Positions 10,706-45,552 of a stretch of DNA of 64,000 nt are shown one piece after another; the first letter of the stretch is position 1; each line of letters begins with the position of its first letter. Made by a program: the position numbers and the translations under genes. This DNA is from Chloroflexota bacterium. Lineage in GTDB: Bacteria; Chloroflexota; UBA6077; FW602-bin22; CADDYW01. A model generated the notes under the pieces. That model was not told where the DNA came from. It did no database searches and worked only from the letters and a program-made list of their open reading frames with translations. The stretch is taken from contig JAJPKB010000642.1 of the NCBI GenBank assembly GCA_021323915.1, positions 381 to 64,380 on the forward strand, read 5' to 3'.

Positions 10706-10806
10706 TTGCGCCTCGATGGGCGATCCGCAGATCCTCGGACTCATCGATATTCGGGGCGATCGATGCCCCCTTGCGCCAGCGGCCAGATTAACAGCTTACG
10801 GGCTCC

Positions 10807-11058: not shown

Positions 11059-11133
11059 GACATCCTCTCAAGTCACGCGCGCGGTGCTCGTTCACCAGAT
11101 CCCCAAGCTCTCGGAGCTCGACTTTATTGTAGC

Positions 11134-14078: not shown

Positions 14079-14268
14079 GTGCTGCCTCCTTGGTAGGGGC
14101 AGGCCCCCGTGCCTGCCCTCTCCATCATTCCGCGAACCGTGCACGCTCCGAAGGAGCCACCCTGTCCCTGCCCGACCACCCCGCCTCCCCAGGGCGGCCA
14201 CGGGGGGCCGCCCCTACGGACGGACGTCCGCTGCTATATACCCACGCTACGTCCGCTCGGGATATTCC

Positions 14269-29651: not shown

Positions 29652-29744
29652 ACAAGAAGCCCCGGAAAGGATCGGGCGCCCCGGCCGCTCGGCCGTCCCT
29701 CGTCCCCTGGCGCCTTTTCCCTGCTCATGCTGTGGAGTCCTGAT

Positions 29745-29758
29745 AGAACATATGTACT
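29745..29758 (+). promoter_or_regulatory. Cheo/LexA-box-like palindrome AGAACATATGTACT in front of the phage-derived block
   Basis: GAAC-N4-GTAC matches 7 of 8 core positions of GAAC-N4-GTTC and 11 of 14 positions of CGAACATATGTTCG. It overlaps a TACTAT -10-like hexamer and lies 34 nt upstream of the ATG at 29792. Confidence 0.4.
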
Positions 29759-29791
29759 ATTTCCCATGGGATGCACCAGAGCGAGGCAGGG

Positions 29792-30142
29792 ATGGAAAAA
29801 CGCAGGCGGAAGGGTAAGCTGGCTGATGACCGGAATGACCGTGCCTCGTCGAATCGGAGGACCCTACGGCGGCTGTACGAGGATCTCTTCAGTGCGGACG
29901 AGCGGGCGGCGCTGGCGGACGCGGTGGCGAGCAGCGACCTCGAGCAGGAGGTCGCGCTGCTGCGCGTGCTAATTCGACGGGGCGTCGCCGAAGGGGTGGA
30001 TCTGGAGACGCTGAGCCGTTCGCTCGGTCGTCTCGCCCAGATGCTGCGAGTCCAGCGGGTGATTCAAGGCCAGGCAGCGAAGAGTCTTGACGAAGCGCTG
30101 GGCCGGGTGCTGGAAGAGATTGGGAATGAAATGGGGATCTAG
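29792..30142 (+). CDS. Hypothetical protein, first gene of the phage block (positional candidate for the small terminase subunit)
   Basis: Basic N-terminus MEKRRRKGKLADD followed by a helical body. Function is inferred from position upstream of TerL only. Confidence 0.45.
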   Translation: MEKRRRKGKLADDRNDRASSNRRTLRRLYEDLFSADERAALADAVASSDLEQEVALLRVLIRRGVAEGVDLETLSRSLGRLAQMLRVQRVIQGQAAKSLDEALGRVLEEIGNEMGI

Positions 30143-30201
30143 GAATCAGCGAGCGAGGACAGAGTCGGGGGATCCCCCGATCCTGATCCCAGGGAGGGGC
30201 C

Positions 30202-30444
30202 ATGGCCGAGGCGAGGCGGCGATCGGCGGTAGCAAGGTCGATTGCAAAGATTGGCCGGGCGGTGAGCCAGGGACGGGAGGCAGCCGAGACCCGAGAAGCG
30301 CCATCATCGTTCGAGCAGGTGACCCGACGCGGGTTGGAGGATCTGACGCGTCAGGTCGAGCGGCTGGAGCTGAAGATCAATGGCGTTTTCCTGGCCATGC
30401 TCGGAGCGCTGCTGGCCGAGCTGTACCGGACGATTGGACACTGA
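30202..30444 (+). CDS. Hypothetical small protein with C-terminal hydrophobic helix
   Basis: 80 aa with a coiled segment LEDLTRQVERLELKING followed by VFLAMLGALLAELY. It ends 3 nt before the TerL ORF. Confidence 0.45.
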   Translation: MAEARRRSAVARSIAKIGRAVSQGREAAETREAPSSFEQVTRRGLEDLTRQVERLELKINGVFLAMLGALLAELYRTIGH

Positions 30445-30447
30445 TAA

Positions 30448-32007
30448 GTGGAGAGTGACCAGTTGTCAGTCCCGGCGATCGGGAAGAGGAGCGAGTGCCA
30501 AGGCAAACGCCAGGCGTGCCAGGGAACGTCACTTCGATACGCGATGACTCGGCTAGGAATGTGGTCAGCGAAGGTGCTGGGTCGTCCGCTGCGGCCCTAC
30601 CAGCTCGAGCCGGCCGGGGCGATTCTGCGGTCGATCGGGGAGGGGCGGGGCGAGATGATCACGGTGATGATGAGCCGGCAGGCCGGCAAGAACGAATTGT
30701 CGGCGCACCTCGAGTCGTTCTTGCTGGCCCGCTACCAGGGCCGAGCGGAGACGCTCGTCAAGGCGGCACCGACCTTCAAGCCACAAATCGTCAACTCGCT
30801 GATGCGGCTGGGCACGCTGCTCGATAATCCGCTGACGGCGAAGCGGTGGGCGAGTGAGCGCGGCTACATCGTTCGGGTGGGTCGAGCGCGGGCGCTGTTC
30901 TTCTCGGCCGAGCCGGGCGCGCAGGTAGTCGGAGCAACTGCTTCGCTGTTGCTGGAGGTCGACGAGGCGCAAGACGTCGGGATCGCCAAGCACGATAAGG
31001 ACTTCGCGCCGATGGCGAGCGCGACCAACGCGACTCGGGTCTACTACGGGACGGCCTGGGACGAGACGACGCTCCTGCAGCGCCAGATCGAGGCGAATCT
31101 GGCCGCCGAGAAGCGCGATGGAATCCGCCGGCACTTCGCCTATCCGTGGGACCGGGTCGCCGAGTTCAACCCGGCCTACGGTGCCTACGTCCAGGCGGAG
31201 CGCGATCGGCTCGGCGCGGATCATCCCCTCTTTCGCACCCAGTACGAGCTCAAAGTGATCTCGGGCGAAACGGGGTTCTTCACGCCGGCCCACCGTGCCC
31301 AGCTCGTCGGGCACCACCCGCGGCGCGCGCTGCCGGTCGACGATGGGTGCTACGTGGCGGCAATCGACGTCGCCGGCGGCGCGGAAGACCAGACCGAGGC
31401 CGTCGCGGAAGGCGTGCGCGAGCGGCGCCAGGACTCGACGGTGATCCTGCTGGGCCGACTGGACTGGCGCGACGTCGGCGAGGTTGGCCGGGAGCCGGTC
31501 ATCTACGTCGAGCAGGCTTACTGGTGGACCGGGGTGGACTTGCGGACCCAGTACGCGCAGATCGTGGATCTTCTGCGCAACGTCTGGCGGGCCCAGCGGG
31601 TGGCCGTGGATGCGACCGGGCTGGGGCGGGCGCTGGCCGATTTCCTCGTCGGTGCGTTTCCCGAGGACGTCGTCGAGCCGGTCGTATTCTCGGCGGCGAG
31701 CAAGTCGCAACTGGGCTATGACCTGCTCGCGGCGATCGCGGGGGGCCGGGTGAAATGGTATGCCCACGGTGACGACGACGCCGAGGGGCGGGAGTTCTGG
31801 CACGAGGTGGCCGAATGTCGATACACCGTCCTCCCCAGCCGGCTGATGCGCTGGGCGGTGCCCGAGGGGCGGGGGCACGATGATTTCTTGAGCGCGCTGG
31901 CGCTCTTGCCGGTGGCAGCGGCGAACTGTCCAGCGCCAGCGGCAGCGATGGTCATTCCCGGCGTGGATCCCTACGAGCGGGAGCGCCGGTTCGGAGGATT
32001 TGGGTGA
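30448..32007 (+). CDS. terL: Phage terminase large subunit
   Basis: Walker A-like MSRQAGKNE, Walker B LLLEVDEAQ, and a C-terminal nuclease-like region with acidic residues (AAIDVAGG..). The true start may be at M33 (30544). Confidence 0.85.
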   Translation: MESDQLSVPAIGKRSECQGKRQACQGTSLRYAMTRLGMWSAKVLGRPLRPYQLEPAGAILRSIGEGRGEMITVMMSRQAGKNELSAHLESFLLARYQGRAETLVKAAPTFKPQIVNSLMRLGTLLDNPLTAKRWASERGYIVRVGRARALFFSAEPGAQVVGATASLLLEVDEAQDVGIAKHDKDFAPMASATNATRVYYGTAWDETTLLQRQIEANLAAEKRDGIRRHFAYPWDRVAEFNPAYGAYVQAERDRLGADHPLFRTQYELKVISGETGFFTPAHRAQLVGHHPRRALPVDDGCYVAAIDVAGGAEDQTEAVAEGVRERRQDSTVILLGRLDWRDVGEVGREPVIYVEQAYWWTGVDLRTQYAQIVDLLRNVWRAQRVAVDATGLGRALADFLVGAFPEDVVEPVVFSAASKSQLGYDLLAAIAGGRVKWYAHGDDDAEGREFWHEVAECRYTVLPSRLMRWAVPEGRGHDDFLSALALLPVAAANCPAPAAAMVIPGVDPYERERRFGGFG

Positions 32008-33523
32008 GATGAATCCGGCACGGCGCTTTCTTGGCTGGCTCTCGGGGCCTGGGCCGTTCGTCGCTTCTCCAGTCCCAGGGGCCAGCTCTCCTTCGCCGGC
32101 CTCCGCCGGCCCTGACGAAGGAAGGGTCGTCGAGGCGCCGAACTCGACGACCTACGCGACCAGCTCGCTGACCGACGAGGATCGAGGCTGGCGGTCACTG
32201 ATTTCCGGTGGGATGCGCGAACTGACCTGGGCGCAGATCATCGAGAATCTGAACAACACGACCGAGGCCTTCCGGACGAATCCGCTGGCCTTTCGGCTCA
32301 TCCAGCTCCAGGTCGACCACGTCTTGGGCGACGGCATGGCGCTGCGCTCGTTCGACCCCCGGGTCCAGGCGGAGCTCGATCTGTGGTGGCACCACCCGCT
32401 GAATAACATGGCGGTCCGTCAGTTCCAGCTTCTGACGGCGCTCTCGATGGACGGGGAGATCTTCGTCACCATGCATACCAACCCGTTCGATGGAACGAGC
32501 TACGTGCGCCTCGTTCCCGCGGCGCTCGTCGACCGGATCGAGACGAATCCGGACGATCTGGAAGACGAGCTCCGCTTCCACCAAACAGCCCAGCCAATGA
32601 CGCCGGATACCCTGATGCGGATGCCGAGCGCCCTCCAGGCGGAGGGGCGCTGGTGGGACAAGAGCGAGATGCTTCACTTCGCGGTCAACCGGCCAGCCGG
32701 GGTGGTGCGCGGTCAGTCCGATTTGGCGGCCCTGTTACCCTGGCTGCGGCGCTATCGGGATTGGCTAACCGATCGGGTGCGGGTCAACAAGTACAAAACG
32801 GCCTACCTGTGGCACGTGACCCTCAAGGGTGCCGATCGGCGGGCCTTGACCCAGCGACAGGCGGAGCTGGCCGAGCCGCCCTCGCCGGGCTCGGTCATCG
32901 TCTCGAACGAGAACGAGACCTGGGAAGCCGTGCAGCCGAAGATCGACGCGCAGACGGTGGCCGACGATGGTCTGGCCTTGCGACTGATGATCGCGGCGGG
33001 CGCCGGCGTTCCGCTCTACTGGCTGGCCGAGGCCGAGCACACGGCGCGGGGGACCGCGGCCGAGATGAGCGAGCCGAGTTACCGACACTTCCGGCAGCGG
33101 CAGATTTATTTCGGCTGGGCGATCCGGACGCTGGCGGTGGAGGCACTGCATCGGCGGGGGCTGGTGGATGTCCAGCTTTCCGACGTCGTCGCGGATTTTC
33201 CCGAGCTGGACACGAGCGCGAGCCTGGAGACGGCGCAGGCGGCGGCGCAGCTCGCGCAGTCGCTCGCCCTGGCCGAAGAACACGGCTGGCTGACGAGCGA
33301 CGAAGCCGGCGCGATCTATCGGCACTACGTGGGCGAGAACGCGAGCCTGCCCCAGACGGGTGAGCGGGCGACGCCGCTCCCTGGCGGCAAGGCCGAGGAG
33401 CGGCGGAAGGCACGGCCGGCCAGGCCGGTGCTGGATCCGAATTCCCCGGCGGCGCAGGAGCCGATTCCGCCGCCTTTCGCGGGTGGCGGGCTGATCAAGC
33501 CCGAGCCAATTATCAACATTTAG
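32000..33523 (+). CDS. Putative phage portal protein
   Basis: 507 aa, directly after and overlapping TerL. Size and position are typical for a portal. No family could be assigned by eye. Confidence 0.6.
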   Translation: MGEMNPARRFLGWLSGPGPFVASPVPGASSPSPASAGPDEGRVVEAPNSTTYATSSLTDEDRGWRSLISGGMRELTWAQIIENLNNTTEAFRTNPLAFRLIQLQVDHVLGDGMALRSFDPRVQAELDLWWHHPLNNMAVRQFQLLTALSMDGEIFVTMHTNPFDGTSYVRLVPAALVDRIETNPDDLEDELRFHQTAQPMTPDTLMRMPSALQAEGRWWDKSEMLHFAVNRPAGVVRGQSDLAALLPWLRRYRDWLTDRVRVNKYKTAYLWHVTLKGADRRALTQRQAELAEPPSPGSVIVSNENETWEAVQPKIDAQTVADDGLALRLMIAAGAGVPLYWLAEAEHTARGTAAEMSEPSYRHFRQRQIYFGWAIRTLAVEALHRRGLVDVQLSDVVADFPELDTSASLETAQAAAQLAQSLALAEEHGWLTSDEAGAIYRHYVGENASLPQTGERATPLPGGKAEERRKARPARPVLDPNSPAAQEPIPPPFAGGGLIKPEPIINI

Positions 33524-33532
33524 GAGGTTTTT

Positions 33533-34024
33533 TTGTCACGAGCAGAGGTTGATCTTCGTCGCGGGATCCGCGACCAAAGCGGCCGTTTTCCCATGCTCGG
33601 CGAGCGGCCGGGTTATGCGCAGCCGGACGTGGTCGATCCGACGGGCTACTCTCTCCACGATCTCGGCCGGGCGGCCGATGGGGAGATTAGTGACGCGGCT
33701 GGGCCGCCGCTTGGCCAGCGGGACGGTCGCTTGTCGCTAGCGACCTACGGGGACGACACGGTGCATCCGGTGCCGGGCGGAGTGCTCGGGGAGGCCGGGG
33801 CCTGCGGGACGCCGGAGGGGCTCGGGATCGCGATGCTGCCCGAAGCTCTGACCGAGCAGCACGCGATCCGGGCGGGCCTGGCCGGAATCAGGAGCGAAGA
33901 TTCGGCCTGGTCACACGAGCAGCCTCAGCCGGATCCGCCGGAGTACACCGGTCGCGAGCCGCGGGGCGCGGAGAAGAGCGATACGGAGGTGTACCGGGAC
34001 TTGTACAGTGATGGCAATGATTAG
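33533..34024 (+). CDS. Hypothetical phage-block protein
   Basis: TTG start preceded by TAGGAGG. 163 aa, acidic, with no recognisable motif. Confidence 0.45.
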   Translation: MSRAEVDLRRGIRDQSGRFPMLGERPGYAQPDVVDPTGYSLHDLGRAADGEISDAAGPPLGQRDGRLSLATYGDDTVHPVPGGVLGEAGACGTPEGLGIAMLPEALTEQHAIRAGLAGIRSEDSAWSHEQPQPDPPEYTGREPRGAEKSDTEVYRDLYSDGND

Positions 34025-34039
34025 GGATTTGGAGGAGAG

Positions 34040-36442
34040 ATGGCGATTCTGAGCGAGGCGGAGCGGCACCGGCTGGTGGACTCCGACTTCGCGATTCCGG
34101 GCAAGCGCAAGCTGCCGATTCACGACGAGGAGCACGCCCGGCTGGCGTGGGACATGCTCGACCGGACGGAAGGACTTTCGCCCTTCGAGCGGGAAGAGGG
34201 CCGGGAGCGAATCATTCGGGCGTTGCACCGGCACGGGGTGAAGCTGAGCGTTCGCCAAGAGCGGTACCCAGAGGGGACCCGCGAGCGCGACGGCGTTTCC
34301 GTCGGGGATCGCTCGATGGGCGAGGCCGCGACGCGGGAGGCGGTCGTCGAGGAAACAACGTCGGTCTTGGAGGAGGTGGCCGAGGCCACGCTCGCCGACG
34401 AGACCGGGCACGTGATCGAGGTAACGATCGTCCGGCCAGGAGTCTCGGCGAACGGGTACAACTATCGGGAATCGGTGTTGCGGGACGCGGCCCCACTCTG
34501 GAATGGCGCACCGGCGTTCCTGGATCATCCCACGGCGCTGGATTTGACGCGGGCAGGATCTCGGAGCCTCCGGGATCTGGTGGGCGTCTACGAGGGCGCG
34601 CGTTACGAGGAGGGACGAGGCATTCGGGCACGGCTGCGCTTGCTGCCGAACGATCACGGTGTGTTCGAGACGATTCGAGAGGCAGTGAATGCAAAGACCT
34701 CCGGGCGGCCGGCGCCACCGATCGGGGTCTCGGCGGACTGGCGGCTGCTGAAGTCGCCAGCGAAGCCGGGGCCGGACGGCCGGCCGCGCTATGACGTCCA
34801 TGCGATTGTCGCGGTCAACTCGGGCGACCTGGTGATCCGTCCGAGCGCGGGCGGGACCTTTGATCGTATCCTGGAGGGCAGCCGGCCGGAGCCGGTGGAC
34901 TATTCGGTGTTGGTTGTGGAGGGACCTTTGAGCGATTCCGTCGCGGCGTCGGCTCGGCCGGGCGCCAGGCAAAATAGCGCTTCAACCGTGACTGGTGAGG
35001 GCTCAACCGCCGCGGGCACGACGTCGCCGGCGGCCTTGACGGGCGTTTTGGAGGCCTGGAGCGCACAGGCCTTCGCGAATAACCCGGCAATCGCGGCGGC
35101 GATCGAGGCAGCGACGAAGCCGCTGCGGGTGGAGCTCTGTCAAGCAGTGCTCGATGCCAAACTGCAGGCGGCGAGCCTACCGGCGCCGGCGGCCGAGCAG
35201 ATCCGGGGGCAGTTCGCCGGGCGGATCTTCGAGGCAGGCGAGCTCGACGCGAGCATCGCGGCGATGCGCTCTCTGCTCGGCTCGGTGTTCGGCCAGCAGA
35301 GCATACGGGGGGTCGGGACGGTGGTGCTGGATCCGACGCGGCCGATGGTGACGCCGCTGGAGAAGATCCAGGCGGCGTTTGATCGGCTGTTCGGACTGGA
35401 GGTACCGGCACACCTGAGCGGGGTGCCGCGGCTGAGTGGAATTCGCGAGGCGTATATCCTGATCACCGGGGACAAGTACTTCGACGGGAAGTACCACTGG
35501 GAAGAGTCAGTGGTGCGCGAGGCGAACGAGACGACGACCGCGGTGATGAGCAACGTCGTACTCAACAGCATGACCAAGCGATTGGTGAAAGACTACCAGG
35601 CACAGCCGAAGTGGTGGGAGCCGTTCTGCATCAAGGTGCCGGTGACCGACATGAAGCAGCAGAATCGGATCCGGCTGGCGGACTTCGGGACGCTGGCGAA
35701 CGTGGCGGAAGCCTCGGCGTACATGAACGTGGCCTGGGCCGATGCGCGGGAGAACTACACCCCGAGCAAGTATGGCAATCTGGTCGCGGTGACACTGGAG
35801 ATGTTTCTGAACGACGACCTGCACGCGGTGCAGCGGATTCCGACGAAGCTGGCGCACGCGGCGGTAGTGACCTTGAACGAGAACGTAGCGAACCTGTTCA
35901 CCCAGTCGGCGGGGACGGGGCCGGTGATGAGCGACGGCTTCCACGTGTTCGACGCGGCCAACCACCAGGGGAACACGAGCGCGGCGACGCCGGGAATGGA
36001 TCTGTCGAGCGCGGCGCTGCAGACGGCGATGACGACGCTGGAGAAGATGACCAACACGGCGGGCAAGCGGATCGGGGTGAAAGGGCGCTACCTGCTGATC
36101 CCGCCGGACCTGCGCTGGACGGCGCAGGTGATTACCCAGAGCCAGTTCGTCGCGGGCTCGGCGAACAACGACATCAACCCGTTGGCCGGGCAGATCATTC
36201 CGATCATCGTGCCGCAGTTGACGACGGCCTACCAGTGGTACCTGCTGGCGGATCCGGCCCAGATCGAGAGCATCGAGATCGGCTTCCTGAATGGGCGCGA
36301 GGAGCCAGAGCTTCTGGTGCAGGATAACCCGACGGCGGGGAACGTCTTCACCAACGACGAGATCAGCTACAAAATTCGCCACATTTATGGCATGGGGTGG
36401 CTTGACTACCGTGGCGCGTTCGCGGCGCTGCCGACGAGCTAG
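34040..36442 (+). CDS. Putative prohead protease/scaffold-major capsid fusion protein (HK97-fold C-terminal part)
   Basis: 800 aa with GGAGGAGAG RBS. The N-terminal part carries FAIPGKRKLPIHDEEHARLAW. A middle segment reads VTIVRPGVSANGYNYRESVLRDAAPLWNGAPAFLDHP and is followed by an Ala-rich linker. The C-terminal ~350 aa sit in the major-capsid position after the portal. Confidence 0.6.
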   Translation: MAILSEAERHRLVDSDFAIPGKRKLPIHDEEHARLAWDMLDRTEGLSPFEREEGRERIIRALHRHGVKLSVRQERYPEGTRERDGVSVGDRSMGEAATREAVVEETTSVLEEVAEATLADETGHVIEVTIVRPGVSANGYNYRESVLRDAAPLWNGAPAFLDHPTALDLTRAGSRSLRDLVGVYEGARYEEGRGIRARLRLLPNDHGVFETIREAVNAKTSGRPAPPIGVSADWRLLKSPAKPGPDGRPRYDVHAIVAVNSGDLVIRPSAGGTFDRILEGSRPEPVDYSVLVVEGPLSDSVAASARPGARQNSASTVTGEGSTAAGTTSPAALTGVLEAWSAQAFANNPAIAAAIEAATKPLRVELCQAVLDAKLQAASLPAPAAEQIRGQFAGRIFEAGELDASIAAMRSLLGSVFGQQSIRGVGTVVLDPTRPMVTPLEKIQAAFDRLFGLEVPAHLSGVPRLSGIREAYILITGDKYFDGKYHWEESVVREANETTTAVMSNVVLNSMTKRLVKDYQAQPKWWEPFCIKVPVTDMKQQNRIRLADFGTLANVAEASAYMNVAWADARENYTPSKYGNLVAVTLEMFLNDDLHAVQRIPTKLAHAAVVTLNENVANLFTQSAGTGPVMSDGFHVFDAANHQGNTSAATPGMDLSSAALQTAMTTLEKMTNTAGKRIGVKGRYLLIPPDLRWTAQVITQSQFVAGSANNDINPLAGQIIPIIVPQLTTAYQWYLLADPAQIESIEIGFLNGREEPELLVQDNPTAGNVFTNDEISYKIRHIYGMGWLDYRGAFAALPTS

Positions 36443-36475
36443 AGCTTGCCCTGAACTCGGTGAAGGAATGAAGCT

Positions 36476-36544
36476 CACTGCGGAGGCGCAGAGAACGCAG
36501 GGACACCGGGGTTCCCGTGGTTCCCTCTCTGCGCCTCCGCAGTG
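36476..36544 (+). terminator. 19-bp perfect inverted repeat immediately after the capsid gene (attenuator/terminator candidate)
   Basis: CACTGCGGAGGCGCAGAGA (36476-36494) pairs with TCTCTGCGCCTCCGCAGTG (36526-36544) around a 31-nt loop. Confidence 0.5.
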
Positions 36545-36566
36545 TGGTTCTCGTGAGGGGTAAGGG

Positions 36567-37226
36567 ATGGGCATCACCCTCCTGGCGGCGATGACGACGA
36601 ACGTCCGGATGGACCTGAAAGACCTGGACAGTACGAACTACCTCTGGCAGGACAGCGAATTGGCGCGCCACATTCAGCACGCGGTGGACGACTACCAGCG
36701 GATCTATCCGCTGACCAACGACGTGACGATCACGGTGGTCACGGCGGCGAACGGGTCGACGCGGCGGCAGGTAGTGGGGAGCCCTTTGCCCACGGGCTAC
36801 CTCTGGACGGAGCGGGTGGAGTACCCGATCGACAACGATCCGCCGGCCTATCTGGTGTTTCGGGAGGAGCTGCTCGACCAGGGGACGCTCTATCTGCCGA
36901 CCGGGGAGCCGCCGGCGGCGGGTGACCAGATGAAGATCTGGTACGCCCAGACGCACACCTTGAGTAATACGACGTCGACGATCCTGACCGAGCACGAGGA
37001 GATGATCGCTCTGGGCGGGGTGGCCTACGCGGCGCAGGCGGCGGCGCGCTACGCGCAGCACCGACTGAACGCGAGCTACTGGACGCCGAAGGGGATCTCG
37101 GATTTCGCGGTCGAAAAGATCGCCGAGTACAAAGCGGCGCTGGAGGTGCTGCGGTCGAGCTACGGGACGCCCGGGGTGCCGCAGCCGCAGTGGGGGCAGG
37201 TCGATCGTGACTGGTACAAACTTTAA
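36567..37226 (+). CDS. Hypothetical structural protein (positional candidate for head-tail adaptor)
   Basis: 219 aa directly after the capsid gene. The N-terminus ..VRMDLKDLDSTNYLWQDSELARHIQHAVDDYQRIYP resembles gp6-type connector N-termini. Weak evidence. Confidence 0.4.
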   Translation: MGITLLAAMTTNVRMDLKDLDSTNYLWQDSELARHIQHAVDDYQRIYPLTNDVTITVVTAANGSTRRQVVGSPLPTGYLWTERVEYPIDNDPPAYLVFREELLDQGTLYLPTGEPPAAGDQMKIWYAQTHTLSNTTSTILTEHEEMIALGGVAYAAQAAARYAQHRLNASYWTPKGISDFAVEKIAEYKAALEVLRSSYGTPGVPQPQWGQVDRDWYKL

Positions 37227-37244
37227 GCATCGCGGGGAGGTGGG

Positions 37245-39344
37245 GTGCAGAGCCTGAGTGCGACGCTGAAGGCGGCGCAGCAGCGCTTCGACGTCGACGC
37301 CCGGGTGTCGGTGCTGGTTTCCGATCTGCCTCCCGAGACGCCGCGGGTGGCAGGACTGACGAGCTTGTACAGCGGGAGCGAGCCGGACGCATCGTTTGAT
37401 GCGTGCTATCTGACGAGCGGGCAGATCGGGCGGGCCTACGCGGACGGAGCAGGGAACGTCTACGCCCAGGTAGTGACACCGCCGGGGAGCCCGGCGGCGT
37501 GGTCGACCTGGTACCGGCTGGATGCGACGGCCTATAGCTACGCCGGGGCCGGGGGACCGGTGGCGGTGTGGGCAAGTGGGTCGCAGCTCGTCGTGTACTG
37601 GCTGGCGGCGGACGGGCACACGATCCGGTGGGCGAGCTACCTCAGTGGAAGCTGGTCGGGGATGCTGACAGCAGTGGACGCCGGGGCGGGGTGGCTGGTG
37701 AGTGGGCTGGCGGCGGATAGCTTGGATCCGACCCAGCGGTTCTTCTACGTAGTAAGCGGGGGGCAGGTTTTCGAGACGCACTGGACCGGGACGGGCTGGT
37801 CGACGCCGGCCGGGGACGGGCAGAGCTACACGCTGCCGGAGATCGGCGCGGGGTATCTGGCGTCAGCCAATGGCTACTCGCTGGTGATCACCTACGGGAA
37901 CCCGACGACGTTGAAGCGGCGGAGCTGGACGGTGAGCAGCGGCTGGGCGTCGACCTCCACCGATCAGGTGCTGCTCCAAGCGGGAGTGGGGTCGGGATAT
38001 AGCTACGCCTCTCCTCGGATCGGTGAGGTCACGAGCACAGTGCCACGGACGGTAATCACCTGGGCGGAGACGGCGCCGGCGCCGCTGGGGACGGTGAGCC
38101 AGATCTGCTTCACCCCCAATCACGGCTGGGTGACCAACGTGGTGCCCTGGCGGTACGCCGCGACGCATGGCGTCCGGGTGTTCCGCGATACGAGCCAGTC
38201 GACTCAATACTGGTGGGTGATCACCAGTAACCAGGTCTACCGGTGTCAAGCGGACTCGGCCTCGGCAAGCGCGGGCCAGCGGATCCGGTTCACCCAGGAC
38301 GAGGTCGTCTCGCTCAAGATCGACGTCCCGCGGGAAAACCATCCCGCGGCGATCGCGATCACGGTGTTGAACCCGGAGGGCGTACTGGCGACGGCTGGTC
38401 AGGCCGGGGCGTACCTGGGGCTGCGCCAGTGGTCCCAGGTGGCGATCACGCTCGGTTATCACACGGCGAGCGGGAACGGCAACGCGGCCTACGGCTTGAA
38501 CGCCGGCGACGAGGGGGTCGTCCAGCTTCCGTGCTGGATCGAGCAGGTCGTCTTTCACGACGACATCGCGAGTGGGATGCCCCTGGTGACGCTGCATTGC
38601 GTCGACGCTTGGGGCATCCTGGAGCGCGTGCGGGTGCGAAGCTCGGTCACCTACACCGGGCTCACGGCGGCGCAGCTCCTGGCGCTGATCTGGTGGCAGG
38701 TAGCGGGGACGCCGGCCTCGGGGCTGGCCCAGCTCAGCGGGCTGACGGTGAGTCCATTCACGTTAAACGCCGGAGAGACCTACGCCCGAGCGGCCCGACG
38801 GCTCGGTGAGATCTGCGGGGTGTGCCTTCGGTTCAAGACGTCGCAGACGTCGGCCGATGGCACCGGCTGGGACTCGGTGATCGCCGAGGCGGTGCCGTGG
38901 GCGAGCGGGGGCTCGGTGTACAGCTACGGGCCGAACGCCGGCCAGCAGCCAATCGTCCAGAGCTTGGTGGCGCCCTACGTCGAGCCCTCGGCGACGTCGG
39001 TGGAGCTGAGCGGAGCGAGCACGGTGTCGCGGTGGCGGGACTGGACGTCGCTCTGGCTGCTCTGGCGGGAGCTGACCGAGCGGCTGGTGGATAAGACCTT
39101 GGCCAACCAAGCGGCGACCGACGCCGCGGCGGGGTACGTGGGGAGCTGGCTGAGCCCGGAGCAGCGGGGCGGCGAGCTGGAGGCGCTGGTCAACGTGGGG
39201 TTGGAAGTCGGCGACCAGGTGGACATCACGATTCCGACGGCGCCGATCTCGGCCCAGGTCTATACGGTGGCGGGCTACCTAACGAGCTGGGATCGCGCGC
39301 GGGGCGTGATCGTACAGACACTCCGGCTAGAGGGATCGAATTAG
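37245..39344 (+). CDS. Large structural protein with Trp-rich repeats (candidate tail or receptor-binding protein)
   Basis: 699 aa; GTG start with GGGGAGGTGGG upstream. Recurrent W-containing units are present (AWSTWYRL, IRWASYLSGSWSG, FETHWTGTGWSTP, RRSWTVSSGWAST). Confidence 0.45.
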   Translation: MQSLSATLKAAQQRFDVDARVSVLVSDLPPETPRVAGLTSLYSGSEPDASFDACYLTSGQIGRAYADGAGNVYAQVVTPPGSPAAWSTWYRLDATAYSYAGAGGPVAVWASGSQLVVYWLAADGHTIRWASYLSGSWSGMLTAVDAGAGWLVSGLAADSLDPTQRFFYVVSGGQVFETHWTGTGWSTPAGDGQSYTLPEIGAGYLASANGYSLVITYGNPTTLKRRSWTVSSGWASTSTDQVLLQAGVGSGYSYASPRIGEVTSTVPRTVITWAETAPAPLGTVSQICFTPNHGWVTNVVPWRYAATHGVRVFRDTSQSTQYWWVITSNQVYRCQADSASASAGQRIRFTQDEVVSLKIDVPRENHPAAIAITVLNPEGVLATAGQAGAYLGLRQWSQVAITLGYHTASGNGNAAYGLNAGDEGVVQLPCWIEQVVFHDDIASGMPLVTLHCVDAWGILERVRVRSSVTYTGLTAAQLLALIWWQVAGTPASGLAQLSGLTVSPFTLNAGETYARAARRLGEICGVCLRFKTSQTSADGTGWDSVIAEAVPWASGGSVYSYGPNAGQQPIVQSLVAPYVEPSATSVELSGASTVSRWRDWTSLWLLWRELTERLVDKTLANQAATDAAAGYVGSWLSPEQRGGELEALVNVGLEVGDQVDITIPTAPISAQVYTVAGYLTSWDRARGVIVQTLRLEGSN

Positions 39345-39427
39345 TGCGGAGTGATGAGTAATGAGCGGGGTAAGGAGGAGTGGGCTCATTGGGAGCGGTC
39401 TGAGCGGAGCCGCCACGGCGGGGGCTG

Positions 39428-39808
39428 ATGATCGGAGGGATCTTGTTTGAGCTGAGCAAGGCGAAGTCGTCGAGGCATCATACGACGACGCACAGGCCAG
39501 CGAGCCAAACGACGGCGCCGAGGACGAGCAAGCCGAAGAGCTCGACCAGCAAGCCCCACAAGGGGACGCACGCGACGAGCCACGTAACCGAGCCGGCGAT
39601 CAATCGGGCTCACGCGACGATTCAGGGATTCGACAGCGGGAGCTATACCGCGACGATCAGCCTGGCGCGGTCGCCGGATACGACGATCGCGAATGTGCCG
39701 GTCAGTCGAGCGATTAGCGCGAGCCTACTGACGGTGGGAGCGACCGCGGCGGTGATGTTCTTCGACAGCCACGATTCGGCAGACGCGATGATCGTGGGGG
39801 TGCATTGA
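39428..39808 (+). CDS. Hypothetical protein, basic low-complexity N-terminus plus small beta-rich C-terminal domain
   Basis: 126 aa. The C-terminal part ATIQGFDSGSYTATISLARSPDTTIANVPVSRAIS..VGATAAVMFFDSHDSADAMIVGV resembles small OB-fold plug or baseplate-V-like proteins. Weak evidence. Confidence 0.35.
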   Translation: MIGGILFELSKAKSSRHHTTTHRPASQTTAPRTSKPKSSTSKPHKGTHATSHVTEPAINRAHATIQGFDSGSYTATISLARSPDTTIANVPVSRAISASLLTVGATAAVMFFDSHDSADAMIVGVH

Positions 39809-39863
39809 CGGGAGTGTATTGACGAGGGGGACTCGGTTCTCAGATCTGAACACGGGAGGGTTT

Positions 39864-40214
39864 ATGGGGAGTTTGAACGTTTCGGATCTGGTGGGGCTGG
39901 CCGGAGCGCCGTTGGTGCTGGCACTCGTCCAGCTCGTGCGCGCGACCTGGCCGGAGCTGCCGACGCACTACGTGCCGGCGCTGACGCTGGCGATCGCCAT
40001 TGGGTTGAACCTGGCCTTGTCGACAGTGACCGGGGCGAGCCTGCAGTCGGTGGTGCTGGTAGGGATGCTGACCGGGCTGACAGCAAGCGGGCTGTATAGT
40101 CACGCCAGGGCGGGACAGAACGCAGCATCGACGAAGGCGTTGCCATCGCGGGCGAGCGCGGAGCCAAGCCTGGAGGTCGCCACGGGGGCGCAAGAGCGGA
40201 GGGAGCCGAGGTGA
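39864..40214 (+). CDS. Holin-like three-TM membrane protein
   Basis: MGSLNVSDLVGLAGAPLVLALVQLV.., ..VPALTLAIAIGLNLALS.. and ..VVLVGMLTGLTASGLY, followed by a charged tail. It lies in the lysis region of the block; the ORF extends to 39819. Confidence 0.5.
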   Translation: MGSLNVSDLVGLAGAPLVLALVQLVRATWPELPTHYVPALTLAIAIGLNLALSTVTGASLQSVVLVGMLTGLTASGLYSHARAGQNAASTKALPSRASAEPSLEVATGAQERREPR

Positions 40215-40621
40215 GTAACTATGATAGCCAGGGGAACCTGATGGTGGTCAATGCCAAGCAGACCTACGGAGCGGCCGGGGGGGACACGGCGGGGGCGACC
40301 CTGGAGCAGCAGGTACCGACGACCTGGGCGATTGATTCGGGGGCACACGCGGGACCCGGGGTGACGATCACCCGGGGCGCAGTGGCGGGGAAGTCGCACT
40401 ACGTCTGTGGGATCGCGATCAGCTATTCGGGGGGAAATTCGGGAGACTGGTATGTGCAGGCGGGCGGCGTGGGGTCGCTGATCGGCCAGTATGGAGCACT
40501 GTTCAATCAGGCGTTCCCGAATCCGATCCAGATCGGGCAGGGCCAGTCGGTGAGTCTGGTGCTGGAGAACGGGAACGCAAGCTATAACTATCGGCTGAGC
40601 ATGTGGGGCTACACGGCGTAG
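40211..40621 (+). CDS. Hypothetical Gly-rich beta protein
   Basis: 136 aa. The GTG start overlaps the holin-like stop. No motif was recognised. Confidence 0.45.
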   Translation: MSNYDSQGNLMVVNAKQTYGAAGGDTAGATLEQQVPTTWAIDSGAHAGPGVTITRGAVAGKSHYVCGIAISYSGGNSGDWYVQAGGVGSLIGQYGALFNQAFPNPIQIGQGQSVSLVLENGNASYNYRLSMWGYTA

Positions 40622-40635
40622 GCGAGGAGGACATT

Positions 40636-40959
40636 TTGCCAGCGAAGAAGAAAGTGGGCACGGTGGCGGCGCTGATGGCGGAGGAAGCGGACCTTCGGGC
40701 GCCGAAGAAAGGGGGAAAAATGGCGAACCTGGGGTTCACGCAGACGGATCTGGCCAACGCGCTCAAGTCAAAGCTCGCGAGCGGGGTGAAGGTGGCGATG
40801 TATAACCAGGGTGACGGGGGATTGGCGGTGACGCTCGAGCTGGTGGGGACAGCGTTCCAGGTGGTGAGCCTGGGGCCAGAGGTGCTGCCAGATGGGATCG
40901 CGATGGGAGACGCGGCGATGCTGGTGCTGGGAGTAGCGCGGCCGGAGGTGCGTGCGTGA
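40636..40959 (+). CDS. Hypothetical protein
   Basis: TTG start at 40636 with AGGAGG 5 nt upstream. 107 aa. Overlaps the SLT gene start. Confidence 0.4.
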   Translation: MPAKKKVGTVAALMAEEADLRAPKKGGKMANLGFTQTDLANALKSKLASGVKVAMYNQGDGGLAVTLELVGTAFQVVSLGPEVLPDGIAMGDAAMLVLGVARPEVRA

Positions 40960-41555
40960 GTCAGGAGCAGGTACGACGGTTCGCCGGGCTGATCCAGTCC
41001 TACGCGAGGAAATACCGGCATCGAGCGAGCCTTGTCGCGGGGCTGATCGATTGCGAGAGTGGAGGAGATCCGCAGGCGACGTCGCCGGATAACGGGCCGG
41101 GGCTGGGGCACGCGCTCGGGCTGATGCAGGTGCTGCAGGGACATTTCGGGAGCAATCAAAACGGCTACGATCCGGCGACGAATCTGGAGGTAGGCTGTCG
41201 GATCCTGCGGGAGAAGATAGACGCTTTTGGTGGCAGAGTCGACTCGGGCCTGGCAGCGTACTTCGGGGCGATCGATGCAAACGGGAATCCGACCGATGGA
41301 ACGGACGTGACCGGCACGTCGGGGAAGAAGTACGTCGCGGAGGTCCTGGACGCCGCGCAGACATACGCGGATCTCGACGCGCCGGCGAGAGTGGATCCGG
41401 ATTTCGTCCAGTACGCGCCGCAGACCGGGACCTGGCGGGAGGCGGCCGTCAACCTGAAGGGGATCGCCGATCGAGCGCTGGCGAGCGGGCGGGAGCTCGT
41501 GGCGATCGCCCGGAAAGCGTTGGCGGAGGCGGAGGAGAGCTGGGGCAGCCAGTAA
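40956..41555 (+). CDS. Lytic transglycosylase (SLT domain), endolysin or virion-associated muramidase
   Basis: SLT signature ESGGDPQATSPDNGPGLGHALGLMQV with the catalytic Glu in CESGG. 199 aa. Confidence 0.8.
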   Translation: MSQEQVRRFAGLIQSYARKYRHRASLVAGLIDCESGGDPQATSPDNGPGLGHALGLMQVLQGHFGSNQNGYDPATNLEVGCRILREKIDAFGGRVDSGLAAYFGAIDANGNPTDGTDVTGTSGKKYVAEVLDAAQTYADLDAPARVDPDFVQYAPQTGTWREAAVNLKGIADRALASGRELVAIARKALAEAEESWGSQ

Positions 41556-41657
41556 GGAAGTACCATGGCGGAGTAACTCGTGTTCCTCTGCACTTTATGC
41601 TTCGCCTCGGCTATAGTAGGCTATAGTCATCGAAACGCATCTGCCAGGAGAAGAAGG

Positions 41658-42764
41658 ATGGCGAGCCAGGCGAAAGGGCAGACTTTGCTCTACGTGGGGA
41701 CTTTTACCGGCGCCCCACCGCATACCTATGGCAAGGCGGAAGGAATCTACCTCTACGAGGTGGATTTCGCGGCCGGGAGGCTGAGGCACCGACAGACGAT
41801 GCCGGACGTTCCCAATCCTTCCTTCATCACCCTCGCGCCGGACGGGACGCACCTCTATTCGGTGAACGCGAACGCCGAGATCGACGGCCACCCGGGCGGG
41901 GCACTGAGCGCGTTCGCGATCGACCCGAACGATGGGACGCTGACGTTCCTGAATCGAGAGTCAGTGCAGAGCGCTGGCCCTTGCCATGTGAGCGTCGACC
42001 GCACCGGCCATTGGGCCCTTTCTACCTCCTACGCTGGTGGAAGTGCCGCGGTGCTGCCGATCCAGGCCGACGGTCGCCTCGGGTCGGCAACGGACGTCAT
42101 TTATTATACCGGCACCGGCCCGCATCCGGTCTCGCAACAGGGGCCGCATGCCCACTCGGTCAACCTCGACCCGGCCAATCGCTACGCCCTGATCTGCAAC
42201 CAGGGGCTGGACCGTGTCTTCATTTACCTGTTCGACGCCGAGCGCGGCAAGCTCGTGCCGAATCCGGCCCAGCCCTTTGCCGAGACCGATCCGGCGACTG
42301 GACCACGCCACCTGGCCTTCCACCCCAACGGCCGGTACGTCTACGTGATCAACGAGCAGGGCGGCTCGATCACTGTCTTTTCCTATAACCCGGAGCTTGG
42401 CACCCTGCTGACGATCCAGACGATCTCGACGCTGCCGGCCGGCTTCACCGGCCAGAACGCCTGTGCCGACGTCCATGTTCACCCCTCCGGGCGTTTCGTC
42501 TACGGCTCGAATCGCGGCCACGACAGCCTGGCGATCTTCGCGGTGGACGAAGCGCTCGGCCGTCTGACCCCGCTCGGCCACCAATCGACGCTTGGCCAGA
42601 CGCCACGGAACTTTACGATCGATCCAACCGGCGCGCACCTGCTCGTCGCGAACCAGGATAGCGACTCGATTATCCTGTTCACGGTCGATCAGCAGACGGG
42701 GCAGCTGGAGTCCCGGGGACAGGTCGCGCAAGTGCCAACGCCGTCGTGTCTGCTCCTGGCGTAA
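41658..42764 (+). CDS. 7-bladed beta-propeller lactonase (6-phosphogluconolactonase, YbhE/Pgl type)
   Basis: Repeats GPRHLAFHPNGRYVYVINE, HVHPSGRFVYGSNRG and TPRNFTIDPTGAHLLVANQDS. AGGAGAAGAAGG RBS before the ATG at 41658. Confidence 0.8.
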   Translation: MASQAKGQTLLYVGTFTGAPPHTYGKAEGIYLYEVDFAAGRLRHRQTMPDVPNPSFITLAPDGTHLYSVNANAEIDGHPGGALSAFAIDPNDGTLTFLNRESVQSAGPCHVSVDRTGHWALSTSYAGGSAAVLPIQADGRLGSATDVIYYTGTGPHPVSQQGPHAHSVNLDPANRYALICNQGLDRVFIYLFDAERGKLVPNPAQPFAETDPATGPRHLAFHPNGRYVYVINEQGGSITVFSYNPELGTLLTIQTISTLPAGFTGQNACADVHVHPSGRFVYGSNRGHDSLAIFAVDEALGRLTPLGHQSTLGQTPRNFTIDPTGAHLLVANQDSDSIILFTVDQQTGQLESRGQVAQVPTPSCLLLA

Positions 42765-45256: not shown

Positions 45257-45552
45257 ATGGCAAAAGAGATAGCTCGCTTCAACGATCGTATCATTGAGGA
45301 TCCCCGAATTATGTTCGGGAAGCCCGTGGTGTGGTAAAGGGGACACGCATCCCCGTGGACCTAGTGCTTGAGGAGCTAGCCTACAACCCTGACCTGAATG
45401 AGCTCTTCGCTGCCCATCCCGCCCTCACCATCGAGGACGTCCAAGCCTGCTTTGCCTATGCAAACGAGCTGACCACTCCTACGCCTGCCCGTGATATCGC
45501 TTCAGACCAGTCCTCACAGAACTCGCTTTGGCCGCTAAACAGTGCTATCTAA
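45257..45552 (+). pseudogene. DUF433-family gene split by a frameshift
   Basis: MAKEIARFNDRIIEDPRIMFGKPVVW* (45257-45337) and (V)KGTRIPVDLVLEELAYNPDLNELFAAHPALTIEDVQACFAYANE (45331-45552) together give the DUF433 signature ..GKPv.kGTRipv. The two pieces are in different frames and overlap at GTGGTGTGGTAAAGG. Confidence 0.6.

Follow-up and report, generated by a model that had tools for sequence, protein, structure and literature searches.

Can phage head, tail and lysis genes that lie in a bacterial chromosome, bordered by host genes and unaccompanied by genes for integration or replication, be a particle-forming system kept by the host? The question is raised by a block of 11.8 kb at positions 29744-41555 of a 64,000-nucleotide stretch of chromosome from an uncultured member of the Chloroflexota; this whole stretch is termed the window. 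The original prediction was a GTA-like or domesticated podovirus-type particle. The best explanation is that the block is a member of a previously undescribed family of phage-derived operons, 12-15 kb long and widespread in Chloroflexota. On this view, genes for integration, replication and regulation were lost from these operons or were never part of them, and the operons appear to be wired directly to the host SOS response. The operon is a candidate new gene-transfer-agent-like element. The reading favored here, predicted from sequence and given a probability of about 55%, is that of a domesticated, SOS-induced, particle-producing element, GTA- or PBSX-like in action.

The block consists of 13 intact open reading frames that form one operon on the forward (+) strand. 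The overlapping or near-abutting junctions noted originally are present, with gaps between successive frames of 59, 3, -8, 9, 15, 124, 18, 83, 10, -4, -19 and -4 nt. The operon encodes a large terminase (TerL), a portal, a protease-scaffold-major-capsid fusion, an adaptor-like protein, a tail hub, a holin and an SLT lysin, and both of its flanks are host genes. Its composition had been described as host-like. This holds for GC3, which is 0.84 in the block and 0.80 in host genes and suggests long residence, but the overall GC (0.666 versus 0.626) and a strong positive GC skew in the block are not strictly host-like.

The large terminase (30448-32007), with ATPase and RNaseH-like nuclease, matches phrog_5909 and phrog_5713 and, weakly, Terminase_6C (E = 8e-4). 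Both motifs pointed out originally, Walker A (SRQAGKNE, residue 76) and Walker B (LLLEVDEAQ, residue 167), are found, together with the nuclease-type Asp motifs IDVAGG at 306, VDATG at 387 and HDDF at 477. Its best match in a cultured phage is the terminase of Bacillus phage vB_BboS-125 (33% identity). The 507-amino-acid portal candidate (32000-33523) is borne out by phrog_10963 (E = 1e-36); phrog_21 also matches, and there is 27% identity to the portal region of Microcystis phage Mae-JY22. Two small genes precede the terminase gene. The first, g01 (29771-30142, 123 amino acids), probably starts at ATG 29792 (116 amino acids), after a GAGG ribosome-binding site. It displays a basic N-terminus and a helical domain and is the first gene in every intact cluster, with 44-73% identity. 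This position agrees with the proposed small terminase, but no match was found in Pfam, PHROG, NCBIfam or PDB, and the candidate assignment is positional. The second, g02 (30202-30444), encodes an 80-amino-acid protein that matches no family in Pfam, PHROG and NCBIfam scans; its position and sequence are kept in the related clusters L003, L008, L010, L011 and L019 (38-56% identity).

Between the portal and capsid genes lies g05 (33533-34024), which encodes a variable acidic protein of 163 amino acids that has no family match and is weakly conserved (42-56% identity across ∼100 amino acids in L006 and L017). The 800-amino-acid protein that follows (34040-36442) had been read as a capsid fusion, and the profile matches agree: DUF6582 (E = 6e-9), a prohead protease, a scaffold and an HK97-fold major capsid protein are joined in one chain, with Phage_capsid_4 at E = 1e-34 and the Mu-like gpT family PF10124 at E = 5e-7 (29.9 bits, above cut-off). 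PHROG matches are phrog_29592 (E = 3e-86), phrog_4523, phrog_133 and phrog_15531. In an AF2 model (pLDDT 70.8), the C-terminal ∼300 amino acids match phage capsids and encapsulins by Foldseek. The gap between the capsid and adaptor genes contains inverted repeat I5 (36470-36550, + strand, 92% complementary), which is predicted to form a very stable RNA hairpin with a 25-bp stem (folding energy -72 kcal/mol, z = -6.3). The hairpin takes up the place that, in most relatives, is filled by a ∼140-amino-acid gene behind the capsid gene. This gene is missing from the window copy, and L021 likewise has no room for it between capsid and adaptor.

The lysis genes are at the distal end. The frame at 39819-40214, originally called a holin-like protein with three transmembrane segments, is a holin by phrog_1299 (E = 1.4e-12), and at least two transmembrane segments are seen, with hydrophobic stretches near residues 19-42 and 52-75. 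The last gene (40956-41555) encodes the SLT lysozyme that had been predicted, a lytic transglycosylase and endolysin (PF01464, E = 2e-14) that also matches PHROG endolysin and lytic tail protein families. Its CES motif with the catalytic Glu is present, and larger SLT proteins in L003 and L017 are homologous to it in their C-terminal part. Two small frames without family matches lie between the holin and lysin genes: g11 (40211-40621, 136 amino acids), whose only homolog is in L016, from the same organism, and g12 (40603-40959, 118 amino acids), which has no homolog in any related cluster compared. This distal part, with g11, g12 and their equivalents, differs from genome to genome.

What the block lacks bears directly on its nature. 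Integrase, repressor and replication genes were not found in the 13 frames or in the flanks of ±8 kb by Pfam, PHROG and NCBIfam scans, and no Pfam family of these kinds is among the families listed for the rest of the 64-kb window (25 of 29). There is no tRNA in the window and no Rfam match, and att-like repeats at the block borders do not exceed chance. The absences reported originally are thus confirmed. An intact temperate prophage was rejected, since there is no integrase or excisionase, immunity repressor, replication module or att direct repeat. As in a GTA locus, a structural cluster resides in the chromosome without integration, replication and lysogeny-control genes of its own.

Mobility borrowed from other elements might still account for such a gene set. 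The block would then be a mobilizable satellite-like element with its own capsid, hub and lysis genes that takes excision, replication and integration from a co-resident or infecting phage or from host recombinases, in a reverse analog of the capsid-forming PICIs (cf-PICIs). Insertion contexts differ between genomes, which suggests mobility; related integrase-bearing small phages could act in trans; and the overall GC exceeds that of neighboring genes by about 4%. However, GC3 is host-like, and no att repeats or target duplications are found at four fully flanked copies. L003 and L011 share a neighborhood with different intervening genes and no precise common att site. Integrase, primase, replication initiator and anti-repressor-type genes define satellites of the PICI, P4 and PLE types, and none is present here. 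The class of PICI, cf-PICI and P4-type satellites was rejected because no frame has a domain matching its traits (integrase, helper-derepressed master repressor, primase or replication module). That the block is such a satellite-like element is considered quite improbable.

The same compact, integrase-less cluster is found between unrelated host genes in at least eight other Chloroflexota contigs. Gene order and left boundary are repeated in unrelated host contexts in L003, L008, L010, L011, L013, L019, the P0010 contig and L068-L071, and the relatives include a distant Anaerolinea type whose capsid protein is 30% identical. Close and distant relatives alike have no integrase, repressor or replication genes in the block, with host genes directly at both sides; the original prediction had been at risk if relatives carried the block only inside complete, variably placed prophages, and this is not what is found. 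As the boundaries are the same each time, random decay of full prophages is an unlikely source. The dN/dS ratios are 0.19-0.30 for head genes, 0.47-0.55 for the hub, the fastest-evolving gene of the cluster, and 0.18 for a flanking host gene. These values indicate purifying rather than relaxed selection and, with the intact frames and catalytic motifs, agree with the maintained function that had been proposed. Synteny at the same chromosomal site, also expected originally, is seen in one genome pair: in L003 and L011 the cluster adjoins the same Opp operon, whose binding protein is 80% identical, with cluster proteins at 40-68%. In most genomes the sites differ.

Decay is nevertheless evident in the family and gives weight to an opposing view, in which the block is an inert relic: a once complete small temperate phage would have lost its lysogeny and replication module, and its structural half would remain, not effectively expressed and slowly decaying. 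Relatives commonly carry decayed or partial copies. In L010 the portal gene is split and the capsid gene contains a nonsense codon, the L006 copy is cut short on either side, L007 and L002 have lone or truncated capsid genes, and L017 has no terminase genes. The window copy itself is without one gene that most relatives carry, and chromosomal locations vary. A complete integrase-bearing phage relative also exists: L084 (IMG/VR UViG 3300009083_000133), an 18.85-kb, apparently circular, small temperate phage with a tyrosine integrase, whose TerL and capsid proteins are 40% and 30% identical to those of the window. An inert relic is considered unlikely, however, in view of the intactness of all 13 frames and their catalytic motifs, dN/dS values of 0.2-0.3 across deep divergence, and the same boundaries and gene set in at least eight independent contexts.

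The control region provides further evidence on this point. Position 29745, originally given as the start of the block, coincides with no frame start and falls instead in a candidate LexA/SOS-type operator, the Cheo-box-like palindrome TAGAACATATGTACTA (29744-29759), 32 nt ahead of the probable start of g01. It differs from the GAAC-N4-GTTC-type motif by one mismatch, in the right half, and is the only match with two or fewer mismatches in the 64-kb window. At all eight loci with upstream sequence (the window, L003, L008, with two copies, L010, L011, L013, L017 and L019), a TAGAAC-N4-GTTCTA-type box immediately precedes the first gene. Of the 12 box matches in 197 kb, eight fall in the last 200 nt ahead of the first cluster gene (P ∼ 9e-15). 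The box is kept even in the Anaerolinea-type cluster, with its capsid at 30% identity and g01 diverged past BLAST recognition. This conservation argues against the relic, since a relic would not keep its promoter-operator. Chloroflexota LexA is said, in work of Fernandez de Henestrosa et al. from 2002, to use the GAAC-N4-GTTC motif. The motif is an established LexA motif in Gram-positive-type bacteria (PMC3323433), and the window box is a palindrome of this type, with its one mismatch, at the predicted promoter. No SOS genes bearing the same box were found in the related DNA searched, and the window cluster has no regulator gene. The motif identity, position and conservation of the box make direct host SOS (LexA) control of the operon probable.

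Direct use of LexA is known from autonomous phages. In the Bacillus tectivirus GIL01 and in CTXphi, SOS boxes in the lytic promoter replace a CI-type repressor (PMC4551915). The likeness, here from a predicted box, is in host LexA as direct repressor; unlike the block, both are autonomous replicating phages with non-tailed virions, and GIL01 needs a small phage co-repressor, gp7. The GIL01 precedent and the very compact gene layout might suggest that the block is itself a minimal temperate phage of ∼12 kb, repressed by the LexA of the host and dependent on host enzymes for replication and integration. Yet there is no spare frame for a replication initiator, polymerase or recombinase, att or terminal repeats are absent, the flanks are ordinary genes and no recombination hot-spot, and the nearest complete relative depends on a further ∼7 kb of genes, integrase included. 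An autonomous phage of this kind is extremely improbable.

The tail genes are of interest for what the particle might do. The 219-amino-acid protein proposed as an adaptor (36567-37226) is always encoded between the capsid and hub genes in relatives, with 34-66% identity; this conserved order favors a head-tail adaptor-like protein, but the SU10_adaptor match (E = 0.0027) is below the Pfam cut-off. The 699-amino-acid protein (37245-39344) had been labeled a Trp-repeat protein. By its AF2 model (pLDDT 73.6) it is instead a tail hub, with an N-terminal lectin-like β-propeller and a C-terminal hub of the gp27/Mu gp44/VgrG/Tal type, and probably the receptor-binding protein. Foldseek matches are MuSo2 and Mu gp44, the 80alpha baseplate and CIS hubs at E ∼ 1e-11, as well as fungal and Photorhabdus propeller lectins; viral Tal and 43-kDa tail proteins match too. 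The hub protein family has 578 representatives, mostly full length. After the hub gene, g09 (39428-39808) encodes a 126-amino-acid protein with a low-complexity Ser/Thr/Lys/Pro-rich N-terminus and a conserved 80-amino-acid C-terminal domain. It is kept in this place in L003, L010 and L017 (51-74% identity), has no family match and, from its position, is possibly a spike or tip component. Tube, sheath and tape-measure genes were not found among the 13 frames by Pfam, PHROG and NCBIfam, which is in line with the podovirus-type short tail of the original prediction, and a short tail is what the gene content suggests for the candidate particle. Compared with podovirus tails of the T7, P22, phi29 and SU10 types, however, the sole large tail protein has not a nozzle or knob fold but a hub fold typical of long-tailed phages. 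The cluster yielded no candidate for a hexameric tube, a Dit or a nozzle-like protein, so the tail may be incomplete.

A lectin-bearing hub could also serve as a weapon. The element would then make a bacteriocin-like killer particle, as proposed for PBSX, whose hub harms non-kin cells and whose packaged DNA is incidental. SOS control with self-lysis is classic bacteriocin logic, the hub and receptor-binding protein evolves fastest (dN/dS about 0.5), and the distal genes (g11 and g12 equivalents) vary between genomes. Terminase and portal are under purifying selection, however, and are not needed for killing, and no contractile or pore-forming tail apparatus was identified. Killing as the main function is very unlikely.

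The favored reading, a domesticated particle-producing element, can be set beside known systems. RcGTA of Rhodobacter capsulatus and other Alphaproteobacteria is likewise a 12-15-kb chromosomal head-to-tail operon with terminase genes first and no integrase, replication genes or repressor of its own. Patchy decay over a host clade is a further likeness, and control by a host regulator and release by lysis, as known for RcGTA, are predicted for the block from its genes. There is no detectable sequence relationship, however, and membership of the alphaproteobacterial family was rejected because no RcGTA g1-g15 families were matched and no tube or tape-measure candidate is present; what the two have in common is limited to the generic folds of HK97 capsid and hub. 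The RcGTA tail is long and non-contractile and contains a tube and a tape measure, and the RcGTA lysis genes are outside the cluster, whereas the holin and lysin genes are inside it here. RcGTA is controlled via GafA, CtrA and quorum sensing, in contrast to the LexA-type operator implied here. The role of GafA in this control is among the matters described in PMC9638019.

The 18.8-kb phage L084 shares with the window the terminase, portal and capsid-fusion families and the small pre-terminase gene g02. It differs in about 7 kb of extra genes, including the integrase and a divergent early region, in a permuted gene order and in having no LexA-type box by the criteria applied. PBSX of Bacillus subtilis is SOS-inducible, non-excising and non-replicating, packages host DNA and lyses its producer. 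The block is predicted from its genes to be a similar phage-derived element; PBSX, on the other hand, is ∼28 kb, with a contractile tail, its own repressor (Xre) and a late sigma-like factor, and the block, which has no sequence relationship to it, is without genes for a sheath, a tube or a regulator. As a class, PBSX-like defective prophages and tailocins were rejected in the absence of sheath, tube, baseplate wedge and repressor genes. Mu is packaged by headful from the integrated copy plus adjacent host DNA and sets a precedent for packaging in situ. The block resembles Mu in its capsid domain, with the gpT match and with the Mu capsid among the structures that Foldseek returned, and in its hub domain, which has the Mu gp44 fold; unlike in Mu, there are no transposase or contractile tail genes, TerL and portal are not detectably Mu-like, and protease, scaffold and capsid are fused in one protein. 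The cf-PICIs are also small chromosomal islands with their own terminase, portal, protease and capsid genes. They also possess an integrase, regulators and a replication module, and their tails come from a helper; the block has no such integrase, regulator or replication genes and instead carries hub and lysis genes.

The GTA-like reading of the original prediction is supported in part. The recurrent integrase-less block, purifying selection and the LexA-type box favor it; the mostly differing sites, decayed relatives, integrase-bearing L084 and a tail that is not of a recognized podovirus type do not.

A mechanism can be proposed for the domesticated element. In the undamaged cell, host LexA bound to the box over the promoter would keep the operon silent. 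DNA damage would lead to RecA-stimulated LexA cleavage and to transcription of the whole operon. By the homology and fold of the gene products, proheads would be formed from the protease-scaffold-capsid fusion and the portal and filled by TerL, with g01 probably as its small subunit. With no excision and no replication, the only substrate would be the unreplicated chromosome, and packaging might be random or start at a pac site in the operon and run into neighboring host genes, as with in-situ Mu. The adaptor and a trimeric hub with its lectin propeller would close the head and bind a cell-surface glycan, and the holin and SLT lysin would lyse the producer and release the particles. The best explanation is a functionally GTA-like or PBSX-like altruistic particle, for which the pay-off may be gene transfer, DNA-repair templates for kin or the killing of competitors.

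Head capacity may exceed operon length, as hinted by the larger genome of the related L084. A gene transfer agent in the strict sense would carry essentially random host DNA in pieces shorter than its own gene cluster, and the 18.8-kb L084 genome, against 11.8 kb for the block, is an indirect hint that the pieces here would not be so small. Together with the lack of excision and replication, this would make headful packaging from an internal pac site possible. A further proposal, tentative and on balance doubtful, is that the family represents an independently evolved, phylum-wide Chloroflexota GTA-like system, the first with a structural operon switched on directly by LexA cleavage, which may, from such a site, preferentially export itself and its downstream neighborhood. 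The system would then be no random-fragment GTA but a machine dedicated to SOS-triggered "lateral transduction".

To our knowledge, few independent lineages of GTAs have been described, and none of them is from Chloroflexota. Loci of this kind are already filed in IMG/VR as viral contigs, yet they cannot be autonomous viruses, which calls for caution in viromics. The predicted system is unusually small, with a single-polypeptide protease-scaffold-capsid, an adaptor and a lectin-bearing hub, and could guide work on minimal packaging systems and on a genetic tool for Chloroflexota. Members of this phylum are hard to manipulate genetically and live in large numbers in soils, hot springs, sediments and wastewater. 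From a conserved 12-kb LexA-wired particle operon it would follow that DNA damage leads to lysis and release of DNA-filled particles and, if formed, these particles could mediate horizontal gene transfer in Chloroflexota communities.

The cluster consists of 13 co-directional open reading frames (window 29771-41555), whose successive junctions measure 59, 3, -8, 9, 15, 124, 18, 83, 10, -4, -19 and -4 nt. Five of the 13 are named by profile searches. The large terminase, TerL (30448-32007), matches PHROG terminase families and, weakly, Terminase_6C; the Walker A and B motifs quoted in the original prediction are present at residues 76 and 167, and nuclease-type Asp motifs are found at residues 306, 387 and 477. 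The portal (32000-33523) matches phrog_10963 (E = 1e-36). An 800-aa fusion (34040-36442) joins DUF6582, a prohead protease, a scaffold-like helical region and a capsid domain (Phage_capsid_4, E = 1e-34; phrog_29592, E = 3e-86; Mu gpT, E = 5e-7), and its AlphaFold model (pLDDT 70.8) displays a C-terminal HK97 fold, as do many phage capsids. The holin (39819-40214; phrog_1299, E = 1.4e-12) and the SLT transglycosylase (40956-41555; E = 2e-14) complete the named set. A 219-aa protein has an SU10-adaptor match below threshold. The first gene, g01, had been put forward as a candidate small terminase. Its position is suitable, but no family or PDB match was found, and as profile searches, PDB and NCBIfam reveal no relatives of known function, the name is a positional guess. 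PDB sequence searches with TerL, the portal, the capsid fusion and the hub and g01 profiles gave nothing useful, NCBIfam added no assignments, and exact look-up returned no record identical to the window capsid protein.

The 699-aa protein was at first labelled a Trp-repeat protein, a description that the predicted structure and Foldseek replace with a lectin-like propeller and a hub. The model, built from 14 homologues (pLDDT 73.6), has in its C-terminal half the gp27/Mu gp44/VgrG/Tal hub fold, with Foldseek matches at E ~ 1e-11 to MuSo2 and Mu gp44, the 80alpha baseplate and contractile-injection-system hubs; the N-terminal half is similar to six-bladed fucose-binding propeller lectins. Because of these two halves, the protein is, as modelled, a tail hub with its own glycan-binding domain. 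The hub family has 578 representatives at 50% clustering, 68 of them at E <= 1e-30, and most are full length. No tube, sheath, tape-measure, Dit or nozzle candidate is found among the cluster frames. A short tail, as originally proposed, is consistent with this gene content but does not correspond to a recognised podovirus architecture, and a hexameric intermediate tail part may be absent or unrecognised.

Host genes flank the cluster, as had been stated: a sugar ABC transporter upstream, and a lactonase, a class-III aminotransferase and a creatininase downstream. The listed GTG start of the lactonase frame (41580-42764) is 26 codons upstream of the start in all homologues (364-372 aa); the true start is probably the ATG at 41658, which would leave about 100 nt between cluster and host gene. 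The claim of host-like composition holds for GC3 (0.84 vs 0.80 in the host) but not for overall GC (0.666 vs 0.626 in host genes). In agreement with the original prediction, the families reported for the other genes of the window include no integrase or replication family. The 64-kb window has no tRNA and no Rfam match. A consensus promoter scan gave no sigma-70 match, and terminator-like sites occur at chance frequency. The cluster borders have no meaningful direct repeats, with only chance-level 8-9-mers at four fully flanked copies. A complete prophage, a PICI-type satellite, an RcGTA homologue, a tailocin and a Mu-type transposable phage were each rejected, as the defining gene set is absent. 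Four kb downstream of the cluster there is a 525-aa Mrr-family restriction endonuclease gene (45545-47122, minus strand; Mrr_cat, E = 3e-33) with markedly low GC (0.56; GC3 0.60 vs ~0.80 in its neighbours), which looks like a recently acquired defence gene.

A LexA/SOS-type palindrome, TAGAAC-N4-GTTCTA, is found at the left end of the cluster. It is present as TAGAACATATGTACTA at 29744-29759, immediately upstream of the first gene, and is the sole match in 64 kb with up to two mismatches allowed. Among related loci, L003 has a perfect box at the same position, L008 has two perfect boxes, the boxes of L010, L019 and L017 each differ from the palindrome at one position (the L017 box immediately precedes the portal gene), and L011 has a degenerate copy. 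A distant, Anaerolinea-type cluster has the box CAGAACTTTTGTTCTA, with no second site of this kind in 22 kb; 26 nt separate it from g01, and a TTGACA / CATAAT-like promoter is situated just upstream of it. Eight independent loci (197 kb) contain 12 boxes; 8 of these are within 200 nt of the first cluster gene, on its upstream side, an enrichment with a binomial P of ~ 9e-15. More distant IMG/VR relatives also often carry the box at the head of the structural genes, and it is kept where g01 has diverged beyond BLAST recognition.

This palindrome contains GAAC-N4-GTTC, which is reportedly the LexA motif of Dehalococcoides, a member of the Chloroflexota. No regulator gene is recognisable in the window cluster, and beside the other box copies at all analysed loci there are no canonical SOS genes, the neighbours being restriction-modification, RecT and host genes. 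Host LexA repressing the operon directly would be the simplest explanation for a motif that persists despite divergence of g01 in a cluster with no recognisable regulator; DNA damage would then induce the operon. In Gram-positive-type bacteria, GAAC-N4-GTTC serves as the operator for LexA (PMC3323433). The two boxes of L008 (5816-6615) lie on either side of a divergent ECF-type sigma factor gene. On L101, the Chloroflexota contig of a lactonase relative, a near-perfect box, TAGAACGTATGTTCTT (17246-17261), precedes the gene for a BNR/Sortilin-type repeat protein by ~65 nt; the similar BNR gene of the window (23559-25196) has no box in front.

Searching the protein collection gave 47 homologues of the capsid fusion, and all named ones are from Chloroflexota MAGs; a scan of genome contigs yielded just two, both short and belonging to a single soil MAG. 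Intact clusters (L003, L008, L011, L019, L013-L015 and contig P0010) have no integrase and are located between unrelated host genes. The L003 cluster, on a 172-kb contig, follows an Opp transporter and ArsC and is itself followed by a nitrilase-family gene, and L011 has the same Opp neighbourhood. The L008 cluster adjoins the ECF sigma gene, and those of P0010 and L019 are likewise integrase-less and intact. The Anaerolinea-type cluster (L013-L015; capsid 30% and TerL 41% identical) has Tad pilus genes on one side and a peptidase on the other and was seen on 24 or more contigs, and IMG/VR relatives L068-L071 start right after a restriction-modification gene. A helper-dependent mobilisable element, second in likelihood among the rivals, would also occupy such varied sites; it is considered improbable, and the borders display no meaningful repeats. 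In the hot-spring cluster L003, a PAPS-reductase-like gene (14217-14969; phrog_424, E = 3e-29), not found in the window, lies between adaptor and hub. L008 has a 68-aa GerE/LuxR-type regulator inside the operon (13993-14678 region), and an Amidase_2 lysin replaces SLT.

Other copies are in decay. In L010 (GCA_042408975.1) the portal is split by a 3.4-kb insertion with two tyrosine-recombinase genes (3468-8522) and the capsid frame is cut short by a stop 17 codons from its end (11520-11571); this is either a dead copy or one with an intervening element. In L006/L022 (5828-14257), TerL is without its first ~200 residues, and the capsid gene stops at residue 587. It is abutted there by genes for a large serine recombinase and an S24 repressor and by early phage genes, as if another prophage had inserted into the capsid gene. 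L017 (2902-17781) is without g01, g02 and terminase; a 521-aa GDSL-lipase-like protein precedes its 435-aa SLT protein. Lone or 5'-truncated capsid genes are present in L007 and L002. L007 has an intact 722-aa protease-capsid fusion gene alone among host metabolic genes (10001-12169) and a 61-aa capsid fragment within a toxin-antitoxin-rich stretch (17579-17761), with neither terminase nor portal near them. Such copies are what an inert relic would resemble; for the window cluster this is the likeliest rival, yet unlikely, given the signs of selection described below.

One distant relative, contig L084 (IMG/VR UViG 3300009083_000133; 18.85 kb), resembles a whole phage: it encodes a tyrosine integrase, has ~7 kb of genes beyond those of the cluster, and is apparently circular because the portal gene is split across the contig ends. 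It may represent a temperate tailed phage of very small size that shares the head module of the cluster. That the window cluster is itself an autonomous mini-phage ranks last among the rivals and is very improbable, the window cluster being without such an integrase. The closest cultured phages are remote (capsid 29%, Microcystis phage Mae-JY22; TerL 33%, a Bacillus phage; portal 27%), and Mae-JY22 has a tape-measure-like gene and is hence uninformative on the window tail.

Nei-Gojobori comparisons of the window with relatives gave dN/dS below 1, as originally anticipated. The capsid, terminase, portal and adaptor genes are at 0.19-0.30, the lysin is at 0.33 and the hub at 0.47-0.55. The flanking host transporter gene gave 0.18 (L003 vs L011). 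These two loci have the upstream Opp operon in common, with a binding protein 80% identical and cluster proteins 40-68% identical, a pattern compatible with vertical inheritance in which the phage-derived genes have evolved faster. The expected same-site synteny is thus seen in this pair, but elsewhere neighbourhoods differ. A metagenome scan with the lactonase gave only short contigs, and L101, its nearest long-contig relative (74% identical), has no shared flanking genes and no cluster. Most relatives have a ~140-aa gene after the capsid gene, which the window copy lacks. In its place, between the capsid and adaptor genes, is an exceptionally stable hairpin (36470-36550; 25-bp stem, -72 kcal/mol, z = -6.3) that could be a transcript-stabilising element, an attenuating element or a deletion scar; L021 too has no room for this gene between capsid and adaptor.

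That the gene set recurs with an unchanged left boundary (operator, g01, g02, terminase and onwards) across many unrelated contexts, that selection is purifying, that GC3 is host-like and that an operator of host type is conserved all speak for a unit maintained under host control and against a chance remnant of a prophage; a domesticated, SOS-induced particle operon is given a probability of roughly 0.55. DNA damage would relieve repression by host LexA and induce the operon. With no means of excision or replication, the chromosome would be the sole terminase substrate, and particles would carry host DNA, either random or from a pac site in the operon. Mu is a precedent for such packaging in situ. 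Holin and SLT would then lyse the producer cell. A killer particle, third among the rivals, is a slim prospect. GTAs and PBSX share the operating logic of the proposed SOS-induced operon. The window cluster is not assigned to the GTA class, whose membership is set by function: random host DNA, insufficient capacity and transfer. Head capacity may exceed the cluster length, as the related phage genome is 18.8 kb.

In the literature searched, no GTA, particle of a defective phage or prophage-like operon wired to LexA is described for Chloroflexota. For a Chloroflexus MAG, a hot-spring study (PMC8597652) lists an 'incomplete prophage' of 13.1 kb that includes terminase, portal, head and capsid and gives no interpretation of it, and comparable loci are on record only as 'incomplete prophages' or IMG/VR viral contigs. 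What is new here is the lineage, the minimal architecture and the putative direct SOS wiring of a probable domesticated, GTA-like phage element.
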